Positions 1 to 12,920 of a stretch of DNA of 21,272 nt are shown here, in pieces. A model generated the notes under the pieces. The model was not told where the DNA came from and ran no database searches. It saw only the letters and a program-made list of their open reading frames with translations. Numbering within the stretch: the stretch's first letter is position 1; the number at the start of each line of letters is the position of its first letter. This DNA is from a virus (taxonomy: Duplodnaviria > Heunggongvirae > Uroviricota > Caudoviricetes). The DNA is taken from positions 1-21,272 of IMG/VR virus record IMGVR_UViG_2617270964_000007. One strand, 5' to 3'. Made by a program: the position numbers and the translations under genes.

Positions 1-1254
1 ATGCTGGAACAAATGGGCATTGCCGCGAAGCAAGCCTCGTATAAATTAGCGCAACTCTCCAGCCGCGAAAAAAATCGCGTGCTGGAAAAAATCGCCGATG
101 AACTGGAAGCACAAAGCGAAATCATCCTCAACGCTAACGCCCAGGATGTTGCTGACGCGCGAGCCAATGGCCTTAGCGAAGCGATGCTTGACCGTCTGGC
201 ACTGACGCCCGCACGGCTGAAAGGCATTGCCGACGATGTACGCCAGGTGTGTAACCTCGCCGATCCGGTGGGGCAGGTAATCGATGGCGGCGTACTGGAC
301 AGCGGCCTGCGTCTTGAGCGTCGTCGCGTACCGCTGGGGGTTATTGGCGTGATTTATGAAGCGCGCCCGAACGTGACGGTTGATGTCGCTTCGCTGTGCC
401 TGAAAACCGGTAATGCGGTGATCCTGCGTGGTGGCAAAGAAACCTGTCGCACTAACGCGGCAACGGTGGCGGTGATTCAGGACGCCCTGAAATCCTGTGG
501 CTTACCGGCGGGTGCCGTGCAGGCGATTGATAATCCTGACCGTGCGCTGGTCAGTGAAATGCTGCGTATGGATAAATACATCGACATGCTGATCCCGCGT
601 GGTGGCGCTGGTTTGCATAAACTGTGCCGTGAACAGTCGACAATCCCGGTGATCACAGGTGGTATAGGCGTATGCCATATTTACGTTGATGAAAGTGTAG
701 AGATCGCTGAAGCATTAAAAGTGATCGTCAACGCGAAAACTCAGCGTCCGAGCACATGTAATACGGTTGAAACGTTGCTGGTGAATAAAAACATCGCCGA
801 TAGCTTCCTGCCCGCATTAAGCAAACAAATGGCGGAAAGCGGCGTGACATTACACGCAGATGCAGCTGCACTGGCGCAGTTGCAGGCAGGCCCTGCGAAG
901 GTGGTTGCTGTTAAAGCCGAAGAGTATGACGATGAGTTTCTGTCATTAGATTTGAACGTCAAAATCGTCAGCGATCTTGACGATGCCATCGCCCATATTC
1001 GTGAACACGGCACACAACACTCCGATGCGATCCTGACCCGCGATATGCGCAACGCCCAGCGTTTTGTTAACGAAGTGGATTCGTCCGCTGTTTACGTTAA
1101 CGCCTCTACGCGTTTTACCGACGGCGGCCAGTTTGGTCTGGGTGCGGAAGTGGCGGTAAGCACACAAAAACTCCACGCGCGTGGCCCAATGGGGCTGGAA
1201 GCACTGACCACTTACAAGTGGATCGGCATTGGTGATTACACCATTCGTGCGTAA
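1..1254 (+). CDS. proA: Gamma-glutamyl phosphate reductase (glutamate-5-semialdehyde dehydrogenase), complete 417 aa
   Basis: Full-length ORF starting with ATG at position 1. The translation ([16 protein letters not shown]...GDYTIRA) matches enterobacterial ProA as I recall it, including length. Chromosomal gene flanking the prophage. Confidence 0.93.
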
Positions 1255-1368: not shown

Positions 1369-1444
1369 GCCGATATAGCTCAGTTGGTAGAGCAGCGCAT
1401 TCGTAATGCGAAGGTCGTAGGTTCGACTCCTATTATCGGCACCA
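1369..1444 (+). tRNA. thrW: tRNA-Thr, anticodon CGU, 76 nt including encoded CCA
   Basis: GCCGATATAGCTCAGTTGGTAGAGCAGCGCATTCGTAATGCGAAGGTCGTAGGTTCGACTCCTATTATCGGCACCA folds as a cloverleaf: 7-bp acceptor stem GCCGATA/TATCGGC, anticodon loop with CGT, T-arm GGTTCGACTCC. It lies downstream of proA, as thrW does in E. coli, and is a known integration site for P22-type integrases. Confidence 0.9.
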
Positions 1445-1458: not shown

Positions 1459-2619
1459 TTACCCCATATTTAAATACACCACGTTCTCCTCTTGTGCCGT
1501 ATTTGTGCCATTGCGACTTATAATCGCATCGATTTTGCTTGCGTGCTCGGTGAGATGCCCGGCTGAAAGGTGGGCGTATCTTTGAACCATTTCGAGAGTT
1601 TCCCATCCTCCCATCTCTTTAAGTGCAAGAAGAGAGACACCGGACTGAACCAGCCAGCTTGCCCAGGTATGCCTCAGATCATGGAAGCGGAAGTTACTAA
1701 TGCCTGCCCGCTTTAACGCTCCCTTCCATGCCTTGTTGCTGTCGGTTCTCATCTTCCTTACCGCTGCTGTTTTTGTTCCGTCGCTTCGGTAGGCAGGTTT
1801 GGTGTGGACAAATACCCATCTCTTATGGAGCCCCTGCTGTTTTCTTAATATCTGGCATGCGGTTTCGTTAAGAGGAACTCCGATCGCATTGCCAGCTTTT
1901 GTTTCATCAGGGTGTATCCATGCCATTTTCTTATCCAGATCGACCTGTGACCACTCAAGGTCTGTAACGTTGGAACGGCGAAGGCCTGTCGTGATTGCAA
2001 ACATGACCACAGGGAAGAAGTGAGGAGCAATTTCTGCAAACAGGCGCTTCGATTCCTCCTCTGTAAGCCATCTGATGCGTCCATTCTTAACGCGTGGTGT
2101 TGATATTTTGGGTGCCCTGTCAAGCCATCCCCATTCAACAGCCATATTGAGAATGGCGCGAAGTATTGCCAGATGCCTCGTCTTCGTTCCTTTGCTTGCA
2201 AGCTTTGGTTTATACTCCGGCACCGGATTGCCAAGTCGCAAACACCTGTCCCGGCTCATCTCCCAGTTCAGGCGATGGCGGCGGTTTTCCATCCCATCTA
2301 CCGCCTCCATTATTTTTTCTGTTGTTATGTCAGAGAGAATGGCTTCTCTGAAGTGCAACATCCAGAACGATATAATGCTCTTGTCATCATCAATGGACTT
2401 CTTATCCGATTTCTCACGCAGCCACCGTATGCAGGCTTCCTTGAATAGCTTTTTCGGTGATTCCCCGAGATTTTTTACTCTCCACGCTTCTGCTTTCAGA
2501 CGATCGTGAAGTTCTTGCGCTTGCCTTTTGTCCGATGTTTCAAGAGAGCGTCTAACTCTTGATCCATCTGGCGCGACGAAATCGCAGTGCCACGTGCCAC
2601 CGCGTAGTTTGATTGACAT
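1459..2619 (-). CDS. int: Tyrosine-type site-specific integrase (P22/CP4-6 IntF-like), 386 aa
   Basis: ATG at 2619 preceded by AGGAGG. C-terminal catalytic region HDLRHTWASWLVQSGVSLLALKEMGGWETLEMVQRYAHLS carries the tyrosine-recombinase HxxR...Y signature. Position next to a tRNA att site. Confidence 0.9.
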   Translation of the reverse strand: MSIKLRGGTWHCDFVAPDGSRVRRSLETSDKRQAQELHDRLKAEAWRVKNLGESPKKLFKEACIRWLREKSDKKSIDDDKSIISFWMLHFREAILSDITTEKIMEAVDGMENRRHRLNWEMSRDRCLRLGNPVPEYKPKLASKGTKTRHLAILRAILNMAVEWGWLDRAPKISTPRVKNGRIRWLTEEESKRLFAEIAPHFFPVVMFAITTGLRRSNVTDLEWSQVDLDKKMAWIHPDETKAGNAIGVPLNETACQILRKQQGLHKRWVFVHTKPAYRSDGTKTAAVRKMRTDSNKAWKGALKRAGISNFRFHDLRHTWASWLVQSGVSLLALKEMGGWETLEMVQRYAHLSAGHLTEHASKIDAIISRNGTNTAQEENVVYLNMG

Positions 2620-2933: not shown

Positions 2934-3278
2934 TTAGTCCTTGCGTAACTCGCTAATTCTTCTGTAAGTCTCTGGTGCTTTGTTTCCGTGTATCTTCATT
3001 TCAGACTTCAACAGATCAACGAGGGAATCCCATTCGTTGAGGATTCCTTTGAATGCCGGAACGCGCTTTGCAACCTTGTCGAATGAATCTCTGATTTCTG
3101 GAATCTGCTCAACAAGTGCAACGCATAGTCGGAAATCTGCTGCGTCATGTGGAGCGCCGAAGTGATGACCATAGATATTCTTTTTCAGTCCACATGCGAT
3201 TGAGGCAAGAGTTGCGCTACTGATGCCGACATCGCCAGTCGATTGCCATTTCAAAACCTTCATAGCCAAATCTGACAT
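2934..3278 (-). CDS. Hypothetical protein, 114 aa, int-proximal accessory gene
   Basis: ATG at 3278 with GGAG 7 nt upstream. I recognise no family. It sits in the xis-proximal accessory region of the leftward early operon. Confidence 0.5.
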   Translation of the reverse strand: MSDLAMKVLKWQSTGDVGISSATLASIACGLKKNIYGHHFGAPHDAADFRLCVALVEQIPEIRDSFDKVAKRVPAFKGILNEWDSLVDLLKSEMKIHGNKAPETYRRISELRKD

Positions 3279-7686: not shown

Positions 7687-8157
7687 CTAATAAAACACCC
7701 AGTTTTCTGTTTCTTGGTTGTGTCCAAAGTTATATTCAATATCTGGTGTTGATGTATCAATATTCTTCATCCCATCAACAAGAGTTGATACAACAGCCAA
7801 ATCTTGTTTGATTCTCATTAAATGGTATTTCTTCCGGCGAAATAAACTTTCAATGGCAAGTTTCTTCGTTGGGAATGCAAAAGATCTTTCTGCATTTTTT
7901 GCTACTTTCTTAATTGCATATCTATTTCTCTTTTGTTTCCATTCCTGTAACCACTGATTTGGTGCTGGTTTAAAATTAACGATCCAATACGCAGGAACCA
8001 ACCATGCATAATGCTCTGTCTGATGAAAAGCTATATATTGAAGTGCGAATATTTTGATTCCATCTTCTTCAACTGTCGCCTGGAATCTCCAGAAAACAGG
8101 CATTCCATCATGTTCAGTTTCTGATTCAGGAAAAGGTACGCTCCATGATATTGTCAT
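7687..8157 (-). CDS. Hypothetical protein, 156 aa, moron-like gene in the N-proximal region (the position occupied by ral/sieB in lambda)
   Basis: ATG at 8157 with GAGGTG upstream. The gene is visibly AT-rich compared with its neighbours and is followed by a hairpin and an intrinsic terminator. I recognise no family. Confidence 0.55.
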   Translation of the reverse strand: MTISWSVPFPESETEHDGMPVFWRFQATVEEDGIKIFALQYIAFHQTEHYAWLVPAYWIVNFKPAPNQWLQEWKQKRNRYAIKKVAKNAERSFAFPTKKLAIESLFRRKKYHLMRIKQDLAVVSTLVDGMKNIDTSTPDIEYNFGHNQETENWVFY

Positions 8158-8219: not shown

Positions 8220-8444
8220 TCATAATTCACTCTTCAATACTTCCAACTTACTAATCGCCGATAGATATCCGCGCTGATAGGGCATCATCATTCCTTCTAG
8301 CTTGCCACTTCTTAACTCCTCCCTGAGCAATTGTATTGCTTGATCAATAACCTCTGCCTTAGCGTCCTTTATGGCTTGCTTGCGGGGCTTTGCTTTCTGC
8401 TTTGGCAGATTTCTCAAGCATGATGGAATGTATGTCTGATTCAT
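8220..8444 (-). CDS. Hypothetical protein, about 74 aa, immediately downstream of the N-like gene
   Basis: ATG at 8444 abuts the N stop codon (TAA-GTG-ATG), with GAGG upstream. Lys/Arg-rich N-terminus. Unknown function. Confidence 0.45.
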   Translation of the reverse strand: MNQTYIPSCLRNLPKQKAKPRKQAIKDAKAEVIDQAIQLLREELRSGKLEGMMMPYQRGYLSAISKLEVLKSEL

Positions 8445-8447
8445 CAC

Positions 8448-8720
8448 TTACCTCGCCGTCAGTTGTTTTGATTTCCGGTAGCCTGCCGCGTAAATGGCTA
8501 CGTTTGGCAGGCAAATACTTCCGCTGCATTCATCTGCCTTCTTGCAGCGAAGGCTTCCGAGTGATGCTGCTTTATCTGCTCTGACGCAACCAGAGAGCTT
8601 TAGCGCAATCTTTCGCGCCAGTCGCTGTTCTTGCATTGCCTGTTCACGTTGAGCCTGTCTGCGTGCTCTGCGGCGATTTCTGGCGTTATCGTCAGCCAGA
8701 TATGTAATGACTACTGTCAT
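8448..8720 (-). CDS. N: N-like transcription antitermination protein with arginine-rich motif, 90 aa
   Basis: ATG at 8720 with GGAGGT upstream; the track ORF extends further 5' into the leader. It contains the arginine-rich motif NARNRRRARRQAQREQ near the N-terminus, and the ends (MTVVITY… / …YAAGYRKSKQLTAR) resemble P22 gp24 as I recall it. It is the first gene downstream of pL and nutL. Confidence 0.65.
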   Translation of the reverse strand: MTVVITYLADDNARNRRRARRQAQREQAMQEQRLARKIALKLSGCVRADKAASLGSLRCKKADECSGSICLPNVAIYAAGYRKSKQLTAR

Positions 8721-9031
8721 GTTGACCTCCGATGAAACAACTTTGGAATTGATAGTGATTGCAAAGTGGTTTCTGGCCCCTCGAACTGAGGGGCAGAAAG
8801 AGCATCTCGCCACCTAATAGGTCAATGCTCGGATCGAGAGATTTAATTAACCTCGGTTTTGAAGTTATGCATTCACATAAATCCTCCTGTTGCATGTGCA
8901 GCATTGGCTGTGTTTGGCGGCTGCATTTCGCCTATGGAATTGACTTTGGCGGTGACGCGCCGGGTGCTTATCTTCCGGTTGCCGTCGTGCAGCTGCACTT
9001 CACGTCACCCCAAAGCCAACTACTCTTTGGT

Positions 9032-9072
9032 TCCCGCATTTCGGCGGGACAATCCCATCAATGTTAAAGAGC
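9032..9072 (-). promoter_or_regulatory. nutL: nutL: boxA (GGCTCTTTAACA) and boxB hairpin (UCCCGCCGAAAUGCGGGA) on the leftward transcript
   Basis: Read on the minus strand, boxA at 9072-9062 matches the boxA consensus (TGCTCTTTAACA) in 11 of 12 positions. It is followed by a boxB stem-loop at 9049-9032 identical to the boxB found after cro at 10189-10206. Confidence 0.6.
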
Positions 9073-9119
9073 CTGCCAATCTGTTCCGTTTAGCTACCAG
9101 CGTCCTGCTGATGGCTTAA

Positions 9120-9201
9120 ATTTAAGATCTCTTTAATTAATGGTCAAGAGTATTTTTGAAGAAAACTTAAATTTTCTTTCGTAACTTAAGTTTGGCTTTG
9201 A
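9120..9201 (-). promoter_or_regulatory. oL/pL region: P22-type operators and leftward early promoter
   Basis: An 18-bp site ATTTAAGATCTCTTTAAT (9120-9137) fits ANTNAAG-N4-CTTNANT. A second site (9155-9172, TTTGAAGAAAACTTAAAT) has one mismatch, and a weaker third lies near 9184-9201. On the minus strand TTGACC (complement of 9142-9147), a 16-nt spacer and TTAAAT (complement of 9120-9125) form a sigma70-like promoter pointing at nutL and N. Confidence 0.6.
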
Positions 9202-9215
9202 TTTTTAAAGGAAAT

Positions 9216-9240
9216 AAAAAAAAAGGGGCGAATGCCCCCT
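9216..9240 (-). terminator. Rho-independent terminator at the 3' end of the repressor gene
   Basis: On the minus strand the hairpin GGGGGCATTCGCCCC overlaps the cI stop and is followed by 9 U (A-run 9216-9224 on the plus strand). It would insulate pL from repressor-gene transcription. Confidence 0.6.
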
Positions 9241-9890
9241 TATGGAAGGTTTGCTAGTTTTGCATCGACAACTACGCCGATGATTTTGCAGTTTCCGTTG
9301 ATCTCGATCATCGGATATTGTGGGTTAAGTGGTTTTAGAAACTTCCTGCCTGCATCAATAACTAACTTCTTGAAAGTTGCCTCGTTTTCTCCTTCGAGCT
9401 TTGCAACTACCAGTTTCCCGTTACGCGGCTCTACTTCAGGATCGACGAGTATTATCATTCCTTCAGGGATACTGAGACCGGCCGGAGCCGTCATTGAGTC
9501 TCCCTTCACGTCCAACCAAAACGAATCTTCTGAACAGTCTACGGTTGTATCGTACCAGTTATCTATTGCACGCTTATGATATGGTTCTACAGCTTCCATC
9601 CAGCATCCTGCGCTCACCCAGCTAATCAGAGGGTATGACCCTCTTGGATCATGCCTACTGTGATAGGCAATGTTTGAAAGACTTTCCTCTCCTTTCATCA
9701 GATAGTCAGGGGAACACTTCAACGCATTAGCCAGGGCGAGAAGATTCTCTCCATTTGGCTCTGTCTCAGAGCGTTCCCACTGAGATATGGCAACATTAGA
9801 CACGCCGACCATCTTTCCAAGTGCGGCCTGCCTGATCTTGAGTTCTTTTCTCCGAGCGCGAATGCGCTCTCCCATCAATTGAGTTTTCAT
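9240..9890 (-). CDS. c2: Phage repressor, P22 C2-type (HTH_XRE N-terminal domain plus LexA-like S24 autopeptidase domain), 216 aa
   Basis: HTH segment LKIRQAALGKMVGVSNVAISQWERSE. The C-terminal domain has the S24 catalytic motif GDSM and a downstream Lys (…VVAKLEG…). The whole protein closely resembles P22 C2 as I recall it. It is divergent from cro across operator sites. Confidence 0.9.
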   Translation of the reverse strand: MKTQLMGERIRARRKELKIRQAALGKMVGVSNVAISQWERSETEPNGENLLALANALKCSPDYLMKGEESLSNIAYHSRHDPRGSYPLISWVSAGCWMEAVEPYHKRAIDNWYDTTVDCSEDSFWLDVKGDSMTAPAGLSIPEGMIILVDPEVEPRNGKLVVAKLEGENEATFKKLVIDAGRKFLKPLNPQYPMIEINGNCKIIGVVVDAKLANLP

Positions 9891-9956
9891 AGTTAAGACA
9901 TCTTAAATAAACTTGACTTAAGATTCCTTTAGTGGATAATTTAAGTGTTCTTTAAT
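9891..9956. promoter_or_regulatory. oR (three 18-bp P22-type operators) with overlapping pR and pRM
   Basis: Three sites fit ANTNAAG-N4-CTTNANT: AGTTAAGACATCTTAAAT (9891-9908), ACTTAAGATTCCTTTAGT (9916-9933) and ATTTAAGTGTTCTTTAAT (9939-9956). pR is read as -35 TTGACT (9913-9918) and -10 GATAAT (9935-9940), pointing at cro (ATG 9971). Confidence 0.75.
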
Positions 9957-9970
9957 TTCGGAGCGAGTCT

Positions 9971-10156
9971 ATGTACAAGAAAGATGTTATCGACCACTTC
10001 GGAACCCAGCGTGCTGTAGCTAAAGCGTTAGGCATTAGCGACGCAGCAGTCTCTCAGTGGAAGGAAGTCATCCCAGAGAAAGACGCCTATCGACTGGAAG
10101 TCGTTACAGCTGGCGCCCTGAAGTATCAAGAAAGCGCTTACCGCAAAGCGGCATAA
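9971..10156 (+). CDS. cro: Cro repressor, P22 Cro-like, 61 aa
   Basis: First rightward gene after oR. HTH segment TQRAVAKALGISDAAVSQW. The length and sequence resemble P22 Cro as I recall it. Confidence 0.85.
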   Translation: MYKKDVIDHFGTQRAVAKALGISDAAVSQWKEVIPEKDAYRLEVVTAGALKYQESAYRKAA

Positions 10157-10162
10157 GCAAAT

Positions 10163-10206
10163 TGCTCTTTAACAGTCATGGTCCTCATTCCCGCCGAAAT
10201 GCGGGA
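10163..10206 (+). promoter_or_regulatory. nutR: nutR: boxA TGCTCTTTAACA (10163-10174) and boxB hairpin (10189-10206), followed by a weak tR1-like hairpin
   Basis: A perfect boxA consensus sits 7 nt after the cro stop. The boxB stem-loop TCCCGCCGAAATGCGGGA is identical to the one in nutL. A GCGCA/TGCGC hairpin with a U-rich tail follows at about 10213-10245. Confidence 0.65.
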
Positions 10207-10264
10207 ATACAACGCGCATCAGTTGGTGCGCATAACTTCTTATTTGTTAAGGAAATACTTACAT

Positions 10265-10543
10265 ATGCAACTTACAAGTACTCGCAAGAAAGCGAATGCA
10301 ATTACAAGCAACATCCTAAATCGAATTGCTGTACGTGGTCAGCGAAAGGTTGCTGATGCATTAGGGATCAATGAATCGCAAATTTCGCGATGGAAAGACA
10401 GCTTTATCCCAAAGATGGCCATGCTTCTGGCTGTGCTGGAGTGGGGTGTTGAAGACAAGGAATTAGCGGAGCTGGCAAAGAAAGTAGCCATGGTGCTGAC
10501 AAAAGAAAAGCCTCAAGACTGCGGCAACAGTTTTGAGGCCTGA
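10265..10543 (+). CDS. c1: CII/C1-like transcriptional activator (lysogeny establishment), 92 aa
   Basis: ATG at 10265 with AAGGAAA upstream; the track ORF starts further upstream at an alternative codon. HTH segment QRKVADALGINESQISRWK. It occupies the cII position after cro-nutR, and 92 aa matches P22 C1 as I recall. Confidence 0.7.
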   Translation: MQLTSTRKKANAITSNILNRIAVRGQRKVADALGINESQISRWKDSFIPKMAMLLAVLEWGVEDKELAELAKKVAMVLTKEKPQDCGNSFEA

Positions 10544-10577: not shown

Positions 10578-10739
10578 ATGACAAAACGTCGTAAGAAATA
10601 CCAGGAAAAAGAAGAGATTCGACACCCTGATTCACCTGAGGGATTAGTGGTAGCCGCAGCAAATAACAGGGCGTTCGCAGAGCGCCTTGTTGGTGTTTAC
10701 AGACTAGCCAAAGCAGGAGTGAAACATGGGCGTCGTTAA
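10578..10739 (+). CDS. Small basic hypothetical protein, 53 aa, between c1 and the replication gene
   Basis: ATG at 10578 with CAGGAG 6 nt upstream. Its 3' end overlaps the start of the O-like gene by 14 nt. No family recognised. Confidence 0.35.
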   Translation: MTKRRKKYQEKEEIRHPDSPEGLVVAAANNRAFAERLVGVYRLAKAGVKHGRR

Positions 10740-11547
10740 GTTAGCTGATTACAGGCCTCAACTGGAGGTCGTGGAGCATCGCGTGGCAGATACCGAAGAT
10801 GGTTTCATGCGCGTTGCTAACGAGATTACCGACAGTCTGCTGATGGCTGATTTAACCGTCCGGCAGTTGAAGGTGATGCTCGCTATCATGCGCAAGACAT
10901 ACGGATTCAATAAGCCGATGGATCGACTCACAAACACGCAGATAGCAGCCATGACAGGTATTCATCACACTCATGTTTGCGCTGCTAAGCGCCAGCTTAT
11001 TGAGCGTAAATTCCTCATTGCTGATGGCGTGAAAATCGGAGTGAACAAGGTGGTTTCGCAGTGGATTAGCCAGGACAGCTTAACATTAGCTAAAACAGCT
11101 AATAAAACATTAGCCAAGTCGGCTAATGGGCATAAGCCAAGTCAGCTAAACACAAAAGACAATATACAAAAGACAATAAATACAAATACCCCCTTCCCCC
11201 CTAACGGGGGCGGCGATGGGCAGGTTAAACCTGAACGTCGCAAGGCAGAACGAATCGACTACGAATCCTTCCTGAACGCCTACAACACCGAAGTCGGTGA
11301 CAGACTTCCACACGCTGTTGCGGTCAACGAGAAACGCAAACGCCGCCTGAAGAAAATCATCCCGCAACTGAAAACGCCAAACGTGGACGGTTTCAGGGCG
11401 TATGTCAGGGCGTTTGTGCATCAGGCCAAGCCGTTTTACTTCGGAGACAACGACACGGGCTGGACAGCTGATTTTGATTACCTGTTGAGGGAAGATTCGT
11501 TAACGGGAGTACGGGAAGGGAAGTTTGCAGACAGGGGGATTGCATGA
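10726..11547 (+). CDS. O: Replication initiator, lambda O-like N-terminal DNA-binding domain with a divergent C-terminal domain, 273 aa
   Basis: The N-terminal segment [37 protein letters not shown] resembles lambda O (…DLTKRQFKVLLAILRKTYGWNKPMDRITDSQLSEIT…). The gene contains an iteron/AT-rich origin and is translationally coupled to the helicase gene (ATGA). Confidence 0.85.
11083..11190. repeat. ori: Candidate origin of replication inside the O-like gene: three dyad-symmetric iterons plus an AT-rich unwinding element
   Basis: Iterons TTAGCTAAAACAGCTAA (11086-11102), TTAGCCAAGTCGGCTAA (11110-11126) and AGCCAAGTCAGCTAA (about 11135-11149) sit on a 24-bp phase, each a TTAGC-N7-GCTAA dyad. 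They are followed by AT-rich ACACAAAAGACAATATACAAAAGACAATAAATACAAATAC (11151-11190) and a GC-rich clamp. Confidence 0.55.
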
Positions 11548-12920
11548 GACAGGATATCGAAGCGAGCGTTATCGGTGGCCTGCTGATTGGTGGATTAACT
11601 CCAACCGCCAGTGACGTTCTGGCAACGCTGGAGCCGGAAGCGTTTTCAATTCCGCTCTACCGGAAAGCCTTCGAGGTTATCCGCAAGCAGGCGCGAAACA
11701 GAAACCTAATCGACGCGCTGATGGTTGCCGAGGCGTGCGGAGAGGAGCATTTCACGTCAATCCTGATGACCAGCAAAAACTGCCCGAGTGCCGCAAACCT
11801 GAAGGGATATGCAGGAATGGTCGCGGATAACTATCACCGCCGTCTGGTGCTGGAAATCATGGATGAAATGCGTGAACCAATTCAGAGCGGAACCATCGAC
11901 GCATCGAGTCAGGCGATGGATGAACTTGTAAAGCGTCTTTCAGCCATCAGAAAGCCACGTGACGAGGTTAAACCTGTGCGGTTAGGGGAAATCATCACCG
12001 ACTACACTGACACGCTTGACAGGCGTCTGAGGAACGGAGAAGAGTCAGATACCCTGAAGACCGGAATCGAAGAACTTGACGCTATCACCGGAGGGATGAA
12101 CGCAGAAGACCTGGTGATTATCGCTGCTCGTCCGGGTATGGGGAAAACCGAACTGGCGCTGAAGATTGCCGAAGGCGTTGCAAGCCGCGTTATTCCTGGT
12201 TCTGACGTCCGGCGCGGAGTGTTGATTTTCTCAATGGAAATGAGCGCATTGCAGATTGCAGAGCGAAGCATTGCCAACGCCGGGAGGATGTCGGTTAGTG
12301 TGCTGCGAAATCCTGCAGCGATGGATGACGAAGGCTGGGCGCGCGTTGCTAACGGCATGAGTCAGCTTGCGGATTTGGATGTATGGGTAGTCGATGCCTC
12401 GCGGTTATCGGTCGAAGAAATACGCTCAATCGCAGAACGGCATAAACAGGAAAATCCAAACCTGTCTCTAATCATGGCGGATTATCTTGGCCTGATTGAG
12501 AAGCCGAAAGCAGACCGCAACGACCTAGCAATTGCTCACATCTCCGGAAGCCTGAAGGCGATGGCGAAAGACCTGAAAACGCCTGTTATCTCCCTAAGTC
12601 AGCTTTCGCGCGATGTTGAGAAGCGACCAAACAAACGCCCGACAAACGCAGATTTGCGTGATTCAGGAAGCATTGAACAGGACGCAGACTCAATCATCAT
12701 GCTCTATCGGGAAGCGGTATATGACGAGAACAGTAGCGCCGCGCCATTTGCTGAAATCATCGTGACGAAAAACCGTTTTGGCTCGCTTGGTACGGTTTAC
12801 CAGCGGTTCTGTAACGGACACTTTGTTGCATGTGACCAGGATGAAGCCAGACAGATTTGCACAGCATCAAATGCACCTGCTGCGCGTGGCAGACGATATG
12901 CACAAGGGGCGGACGTATGA
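11544..12920 (+). CDS. DnaB-family replicative DNA helicase (P22 gene 12-like), 458 aa
   Basis: Walker A motif ([15 protein letters not shown]) and a DnaB-like C-terminal RecA-fold region with N-terminal helical domain. It is coupled to the O-like gene, so the phage brings its own helicase rather than a lambda P-type loader. Confidence 0.88.

Follow-up and report, generated by a model that had tools for sequence, protein, structure and literature searches.

A P22-type immunity cassette joined to an HK620-type N/nut module in the early control region of an Escherichia coli lambdoid prophage

Does the early control region at positions 9032-10206 of the Caudoviricetes record IMGVR_UViG_2617270964_000007 encode an N antitermination protein and boxB hairpins with a recognition specificity of their own, and is such a pair new? 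The question was raised by a reading of the letters alone, made before any database search (hereafter the sequence-only reading), which had described a P22-type immunity region combined with identical boxB hairpins and an N protein with a distinct arginine-rich motif. We analysed the whole stretch of 21,272 nucleotides, called the window below. The list of open reading frames (ORFs) and Pfam searches revealed a complete lambdoid early-control set in 9032-10206 and its flanks, with Pfam assigning the window proteins N, C2, Cro, CII and O to their respective families. All the sequence features of the sequence-only reading were borne out at the positions it gave. In all probability, two cassettes that are already catalogued, P22 immC and an HK620-type N/nut module, are combined here into a routine mosaic, the early control region of an E. 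coli lambdoid prophage. This combination of N/nut type and immunity is already known: several phages with names of their own and E. coli genomes in the hundreds have been sequenced that contain it. The features concerned are the following.

8448..8720, minus strand: N antitermination gene, 90 amino acids (Pfam N_peptide, E 1.3e-15, 58.1 bits against a cut-off of 27.9 bits)
8735..8938, minus strand: 204-nt insertion between nutL and the ribosome-binding site of N (alignment with HK620, CUS-3 and HK629)
9032..9072, minus strand: nutL, with boxA GCTCTTTAACA at 9072-9062, a spacer and boxB UCCCGCCGAAAUGCGGGA at 9049-9032; identical to the annotated HK620 nutL
9119..9147, minus strand: pL promoter, TTGACC, 17 nt, TAAATT (promoter scan; aligns with the annotated P22 pL)
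9120..9204, no strand: left operator oL, with a perfect site at 9120-9137, a site with one mismatch at 9155-9172 and a weak site at ~9187-9204 of which only the left half-site is present
9222..9241, minus strand: intrinsic terminator that ends the repressor transcript just after c2 (scan: 8-bp stem followed by a T run)
9240..9890, minus strand: c2 repressor gene, 216 amino acids (Pfam HTH_3, 1.4e-16, and Peptidase_S24, 1.1e-30, that is, a helix-turn-helix and an S24 self-cleaving peptidase)
9891..9956, no strand: right operator oR, three perfect 18-bp operators (pattern scan; the aligned P22 record annotates OR1-3, pR and pRM there)
9913-9940, plus strand: pR promoter, overlapped by oR (promoter scan)
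9971..10156, plus strand: cro, 61 amino acids, P22 type, divergent from c2 (Pfam P22_Cro, E 8.7e-28)
10164..10206, plus strand: nutR, with boxA GCTCTTTAACA at 10164-10174, a spacer and boxB at 10189-10206; identical to the annotated HK620 nutR from boxA through boxB

The immunity half of this mosaic follows P22 closely. C2 is identical to P22 C2 at 199 of 216 positions (92%), including all of residues 17-53 with the helix-turn-helix, and Cro shares 58 of 61 residues with its P22 counterpart (95%). The c2-cro intergenic region differs from that of P22 by only three substitutions, two of which fall inside operator sites, and the sequence can also be aligned with P22 throughout oL, pL and the c2 terminator; at the position matching this terminator, HK620 annotates tIMM. 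Since both proteins and the operators are this close to P22, the cassette is, as judged by homology, P22 immC in an E. coli phage, which agrees with the P22-type assignment of the sequence-only reading. The 17 positions at which C2 differs, 7 of them within residues 1-68, could together with a few operator changes (one base in each of two oR sites, and several central bases of oL1) have altered specificity and turned the phage into a heteroimmune relative of P22 with an immunity type of its own. We consider this very unlikely, given that the helix-turn-helix stretch of C2 is the same as in P22, that every conserved operator position (ANTNAAG / CTTNANT) is retained and that Cro is almost unchanged. 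With P22 immC as the preferred assignment, an immunity identical to that of P22 would be expected: C2 would bind the three 18-bp oR operators as well as the homologous oL sites and thereby shut pR and pL, and Cro, made from pR, would bind the same sites during lytic growth.

Pattern scanning for ANTNAAG-N4-CTTNANT yielded four matches with zero mismatches in the window, three of them in the c2-cro gap (9891-9908, 9916-9933 and 9939-9956) and the fourth at pL (9120-9137). All remaining matches have one or two mismatches and are at chance level, with 18 found at up to two mismatches against 11.8 expected. The oL site at 9155-9172 carries a single mismatch and does not differ at any base from the P22 sequence aligned with it. 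At ~9187-9204 only the left half-site (ACTTAAG) is good, and the aligned P22 sequence, which lies within the span annotated as OL1-3, looks likewise; the P22 record marks this overall span and not the single sites. A match with two mismatches at 9165-9182, overlapping the site at 9155-9172 that fits better, was not counted as an operator. Three operators per side had been proposed: this is exact for oR, and at oL the third site is supported by homology to P22 and not by the pattern, so that the more cautious wording of "at least two" sites in oL, one perfect and one with a single mismatch, was the accurate one.

The second half of the mosaic comprises the nut sites and N. The 18-mer boxB TCCCGCCGAAATGCGGGA occurs exactly twice in the window, at 9032-9049 (minus strand) and 10189-10206 (plus strand), where even at up to three mismatches 0.02 chance matches are expected. 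A boxA precedes each copy by 12-14 nt on the strand read from pL or pR, and the 18-mer folds into a 6-bp stem with a CGAAAU loop (-9.7 kcal/mol). The hairpins and boxA elements are thus as first described: the same 18-mer stands in nutL and nutR, GCTCTTTAACA on the transcribed strand 5′ of each boxB fits the boxA consensus, and the nut sites so assigned are those that HK620 has annotated as nutL and nutR. Folding in context only modestly beats shuffled sequence (z = -1.6 and -0.7), which leaves a little room for the view that the two hairpins are terminators, RNase III sites or chance inverted repeats and that N acts elsewhere. This is hardly conceivable, as the two 18-mers are identical and have no further copy in the 21 kb, a consensus boxA precedes each of them by 12-14 nt on the transcribed strand, a T run follows neither, they stand where nut sites are annotated in HK620, P22, Sf6 and VT1-Sakai, and the type of hairpin varies together with the type of N motif (see below). 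The pL and pR transcripts thus each contain a boxA followed by an identical boxB, with a 6-bp G+C-rich stem and a C-GAAA-U loop, and boxA would recruit NusB/NusE. The boxA of nutR with its flanks, 10164-10176 (plus strand), reads TGCTCTTTAACAG, which we take to be closer to the E. coli rrn boxA consensus UGCUCUUUAACAA than is lambda's CGCUCUUA; this hints at strong NusB/NusE binding.

The N gene follows pL and nutL and opens the pL operon, has a GGAGG Shine-Dalgarno sequence 5′ of its ATG, and encodes the arginine-rich motif DNARNRRRARRQAQREQ at residues 11-27. Alignment with the N proteins of VT1-Sakai, HK629, CUS-3, P22 and lambda bore out the earlier impression that its termini (MTVVITY... 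and ...YAAGYRKSKQLTAR) resemble those of P22 gp24. The C-terminal half is a module common to phi21-type N proteins, its end being P22 gp24-like, and among N proteins of the HK620 type two alternative C-terminal modules occur, one P22-like and one lambda-like. The motif was also correctly judged to be unlike those of lambda (DAQTRRRERRAEKQAQW), P22 (GNAKTRRHERRRKLAIE) and the phi21 type found in VT1-Sakai and HK629 (GTAKSRYKARRAELIAE), and it differs from the motif RSRRRER of H-19B N (PMC3526286). H-19B and CP-933V are mentioned in the annotation notes of HK629 and HK620; H-19B N is ruled out as a source by its motif and its length of 127 amino acids (PMC3526286). The alignment proposed at the outset, to P22, L, HK620 and Sf6, sorted these phages clearly: P22 and L carry the P22-type N (for L, see PMC8022706), Sf6 has the lambda type, and HK620 has the present type.

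What did not survive this comparison is the implied novelty of the N/boxB pair. The N protein of HK620 (AF335538, AAK28866.1) is identical to that of the window at 88 of 90 positions (98%) and in the whole of the motif (100%), and the nut sites are alike. The sequence-only reading had named a motif identical to that of a characterised N protein as evidence against it, and this applies only in a weak sense, the HK620 protein being known as a published and annotated sequence. N is translated first from the transcript that starts at pL. The arginine-rich helix at its N-terminus would bind boxB and the remainder would contact NusA and RNA polymerase, and the polymerase would then, presumably in a Nus-dependent way, ignore the terminators ahead and go on to transcribe the genes for recombination and replication.

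Prophages of E. coli very often carry the HK620-type motif/boxB pair. Among 5,426 complete E. coli genomes, 263 contain the N-to-nutR block at a coverage of at least 80%, and the exact boxB 18-mer was found in at least 120 IMG/VR viral contigs, mostly as a divergent pair. The spacing of these pairs falls into classes of 1152-1157, 1231, 1695-1698, 1740, 2009, 2291, 2862 and 2968-2990 nt, which correspond to at least seven different repressor types, lambda cI among them. In two contigs (L028 and L047) the repressor, which we presume to be lambda cI, is flanked by HK620-type boxBs and not by lambda nut sites; these would combine lambda immunity with a non-lambda N/nut module. Among named phages, JEP4, HK140, HK630, CUS-3, N7, IME10 and Gally also have the HK620-type N/nut, with N proteins that are 100% identical to ours in JEP4 and 97.8% identical in HK140 and HK630.

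Whether motif and boxB change together was examined in 80 contigs chosen solely by the C-terminal half of N. Sixty-seven of them have the HK620-type motif, nutL and nutR, four are of the phi21 type throughout, and none is mixed; the other nine are uninformative for nutR, three being without both nut sites and six without nutR. Motif type and boxB type thus agree in 71 of 71 informative loci. The naive Fisher probability of the 67/4/0 split, ~1e-6 (1/C(71,4)), treats events as independent that are not. The association of the motif with nutR is more telling than that with nutL because it spans unrelated immunity cassettes: since at least seven repressor types occur between the two boxBs, the link has been kept across unrelated intervening DNA. 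Furthermore, every contig with two boxBs and sufficient flank has the HK620-type motif, or a one-residue variant of it, downstream of one of them, and the 18-mer is nearly invariant (208 of 214 copies, in contigs chosen for an exact copy). This strict co-switching of the motif with both boxBs supports the earlier proposal that the boxB specificity would differ from those of lambda, P22 and phage 21, and it supports a separate specificity class for the HK620-type motif and boxB. The arginine-rich motif and both boxBs probably form one co-evolving specificity unit, and in phages that are otherwise homologous this unit and the phi21-type one have replaced each other as a whole.

Compared with each known class in turn, the window combines the HK620-type motif DNARNRRRARRQAQREQ with boxB UCCCGCCGAAAUGCGGGA in nutL and nutR alike, the pairing seen in all 67 informative loci of this type (67/67). 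It lacks the P22 gp24 motif GNAKTRRHERRRKLAIERD and the GACAA pentaloop, with ~6/18 motif positions shared and a CGAAAU loop, and it has neither the lambda motif DAQTRRRERRAEKQAQW with the boxB GCCCUGAARAAGGGC nor the phage 21 motif GTAKSRYKARRAELIAERR with a CUAAC-containing loop. N may nevertheless play its usual role and belong to no separate class, its recognition of a GNRA-like loop being lambda-like, with cross-reaction to the lambda and/or P22 boxB and neutral drift of the motif. A core A-x-(T/N)-R-R-(R/H)-(E/A)-R-R is indeed common to lambda, P22 and the present N, and GAAA is present in the boxB loop. Moreover, CCGCCGA-AA-U-GCGG differs from the P22 nutR boxB CCGCCGACAACGCGG only by the loss of one C and one C-to-U change; the lost C is the extruded-type base of the P22 nutR loop, the changed C lies in the 3′ flank, and P22 nutR also has a pyrimidine mismatch flanking the loop. 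The lambda N peptide is reportedly tolerant of a GAAA tetraloop in place of GAAAA (Legault et al. 1998), which would favour cross-reaction. We nonetheless regard the absence of a separate class as unlikely. Only ~6/18 motif positions are shared with lambda or P22, as counted on the alignment, and the position of lambda Trp18 is occupied by Ala; the nearly invariant 18-mer always occurs with the HK620-type motif; motif and both boxBs are replaced jointly where the phi21 type occurs; and a diverged relative retains the CGAAAU loop at both nut sites.

This relative, contig L017, has N at 2938-3213, nutL at ~2660-2692 and nutR at ~1062-1095, beside a P22-like Cro and a different C2-like repressor. 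Its motif reads DTAKNRRRERRAALRDQ / SDTAKNRRRERRAALRDQ, and an exact HK620-type boxB stands at nutL and the stem variant UCCCGCCGAAAUGCAGGA at nutR, so that the CGAAAU loop is kept at both sites while motif and stem drift.

Several points weigh against our interpretation of the region as P22 immunity joined to an N/boxB pair of separate specificity. The third oL site is only a half-site, and the co-switching counts are of non-independent events. The motif and nutL are 100-300 nt apart, and linkage alone therefore explains their association. As the core A-x-N/T-RRR-x-RR and a GAAA loop are shared, partial cross-recognition with the lambda or P22 boxB is possible. In addition, the motif and boxB strings gave no match in the full-text literature searched, literature searches found no binding or antitermination study of the HK620-type N-boxB pair, and a PDB sequence search returned no relevant solved structure for N. 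The boxB matched no Rfam family when the whole window was searched at gathering thresholds and 8650-10300 at permissive E-values; these searches returned only the tRNA and one chance match. It has been stated in general terms that N specificities vary among P22-like phages (PMC2629481, PMC8022706), and in papers on P22-like genomes a "novel BoxB specificity" is routinely inferred where the N termini diverge (PMC2629481), so that inferring specificity from a divergent N is standard practice.

The N leader of the window is unusual in its length. From boxB to the ATG, which is included, it measures 314 nt, compared with 110 nt in 48 of 95 contigs, the HK620-like short form. The difference lies in the 204-nt insertion, which is absent from HK620 and present in CUS-3. 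Fifteen distinct IMG/VR copies fall into two diverged haplotypes and recombinants between them, and a consensus fold revealed four hairpin stems that are conserved while loops and linkers vary, one stem having gained a paired G/C insertion. The stem of the last hairpin adjoins the N ribosome-binding site, and AGGAGGAUUUAUGUGA, a Shine-Dalgarno sequence with AUG-UGA, is invariant in the insertion. In the same Rfam searches the insertion had no match at either stringency. Two minus-strand ORFs of 70 and 41 amino acids inside the leader were rejected as genes, their frame being lost in the CUS-3 haplotype. Long leaders were also seen elsewhere, with 334 nt in L012, L062, L075, L119 and L124, 361 nt in L024, L049, L070 and L121, and 621 nt in L091. 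Other inserts at the same spot include a 39-amino-acid hydrophobic ORF (MLDIMTNPILGGLVTTFAICFGFTIWSEVDDWMWERKNK), an HNH endonuclease-like ORF and a 250-nt block immediately 3′ of boxB. The interval from nutL to the start of N is an insertion hot spot.

The N leader of lambda is processed by RNase III. By analogy, it is plausible that the present insertion affects N translation, and leader inserts of the various kinds (structured RNA, hydrophobic ORF, HNH-like ORF) could modulate N expression. A bolder proposal, possible but doubtful in our view, is that the HK620-type pair uses a fourth mode of boxB recognition, its target being either a true GAAA tetraloop with a flanking C.U mismatch or a CGAAAU hexaloop, in both cases with no extruded base. 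As a separate matter, the leader insert could act in cis as a hitherto undescribed regulator of N translation or of Rho access. If true, the fourth recognition mode would differ from the solutions of lambda, P22 and phi21 and provide a naturally orthogonal peptide-RNA pair. Measurement of the HK620-type pair would add a fourth natural N-boxB pair, of use for RNA tethering and for understanding how arginine-rich helices read GNRA-like loops.

The surroundings of the control region are those of a P22-like/HK620-like lambdoid prophage integrated beside a tRNA-Thr gene in E. coli. The tRNA-Thr gene (anticodon CGT, 1369-1444, plus strand) adjoins an ORF of 386 amino acids in integrase position (1459-2619, minus strand), and the window therefore covers the left end of a prophage at this gene. 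Homologous stretches of related phages to this ORF carry an integrase annotation, and a host ORF occupies window positions 1-1254. Directly downstream of N in the pL operon are two ORFs, of 75 amino acids (8220-8447, minus strand) and 156 amino acids (7687-8157, minus strand), neither of which had a match in the Pfam scan. The further features of both operons are these.

7584-7563, minus strand: strong leftward intrinsic terminator downstream of N (terminator scan), a candidate tL for N to override
10265..10543, plus strand: c1/cII-type activator gene, the first after nutR (Pfam Phage_CII, E 2.7e-44)
10726-11547: O-type replication gene (Pfam)
11544-12920: ORF with homologues in related phages that carry the annotation DnaB-like replicative helicase

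It is textbook knowledge that lambdoid phages are mosaics which swap immunity and N/nut cassettes. Because of this, and because the combination has already been sequenced, the region carries little weight for general phage biology.

Among known phages, HK620 is the closest for the N/nut half. Besides the nearly identical N described above, it has the boxA, spacer and boxB of nutL and nutR as in the window, and the same order, with pL, nutL and N on one side and cro, nutR and cII on the other. Its immunity differs, as the record likens its cI to those of 434 and L and gives 17-bp operators, and its 110-nt N leader is without the 204-nt insertion. P22 is the counterpart for the immunity half, with the C2 and Cro likeness given above, nearly identical operators and promoters, a shared layout and a related c1. 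In contrast, its gene 24 protein has the motif GNAKTRRHERRRKLAIERD where the window has DNARNRRRARRQAQREQ, and its left and right boxBs have GACAA loops and differ from each other, whereas those of the window are identical and have a CGAAAU loop.

Both halves occur together, as in the window, in CUS-3 (CP000711), JEP4, N7, IME10 and Gally, which carry P22-type c2/cro with the HK620-type motif and nut sites at a block identity of 96-99%. CUS-3 departs from the window in the lambda-like C-terminal module of its N (...GRQKMKLGSKPLI), where ours has a P22-like end, and in having the leader insertion in the other haplotype. The reciprocal cassette is found in HK629 and VT1-Sakai. VT1-Sakai N is 100% identical to ours over residues 38-90, the C-terminal half of HK629 N is nearly identical, and boxA is shared, yet both phages have the motif GTAKSRYKARRAELIAERR and, at both nut sites, phi21-type boxBs with a CUAAC-containing loop. 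HK629 moreover also has P22-type c2/cro, and still carries the phi21-type motif and boxBs on both sides. Finally, the lambda N/boxB system, as present in Sf6, shares the protein family and the nut architecture, but has the motif MDAQTRRRERRAEKQAQWK and the boxB GCCCUGAA(G/A)AAGGGC, a pentaloop closed by a U-A pair.

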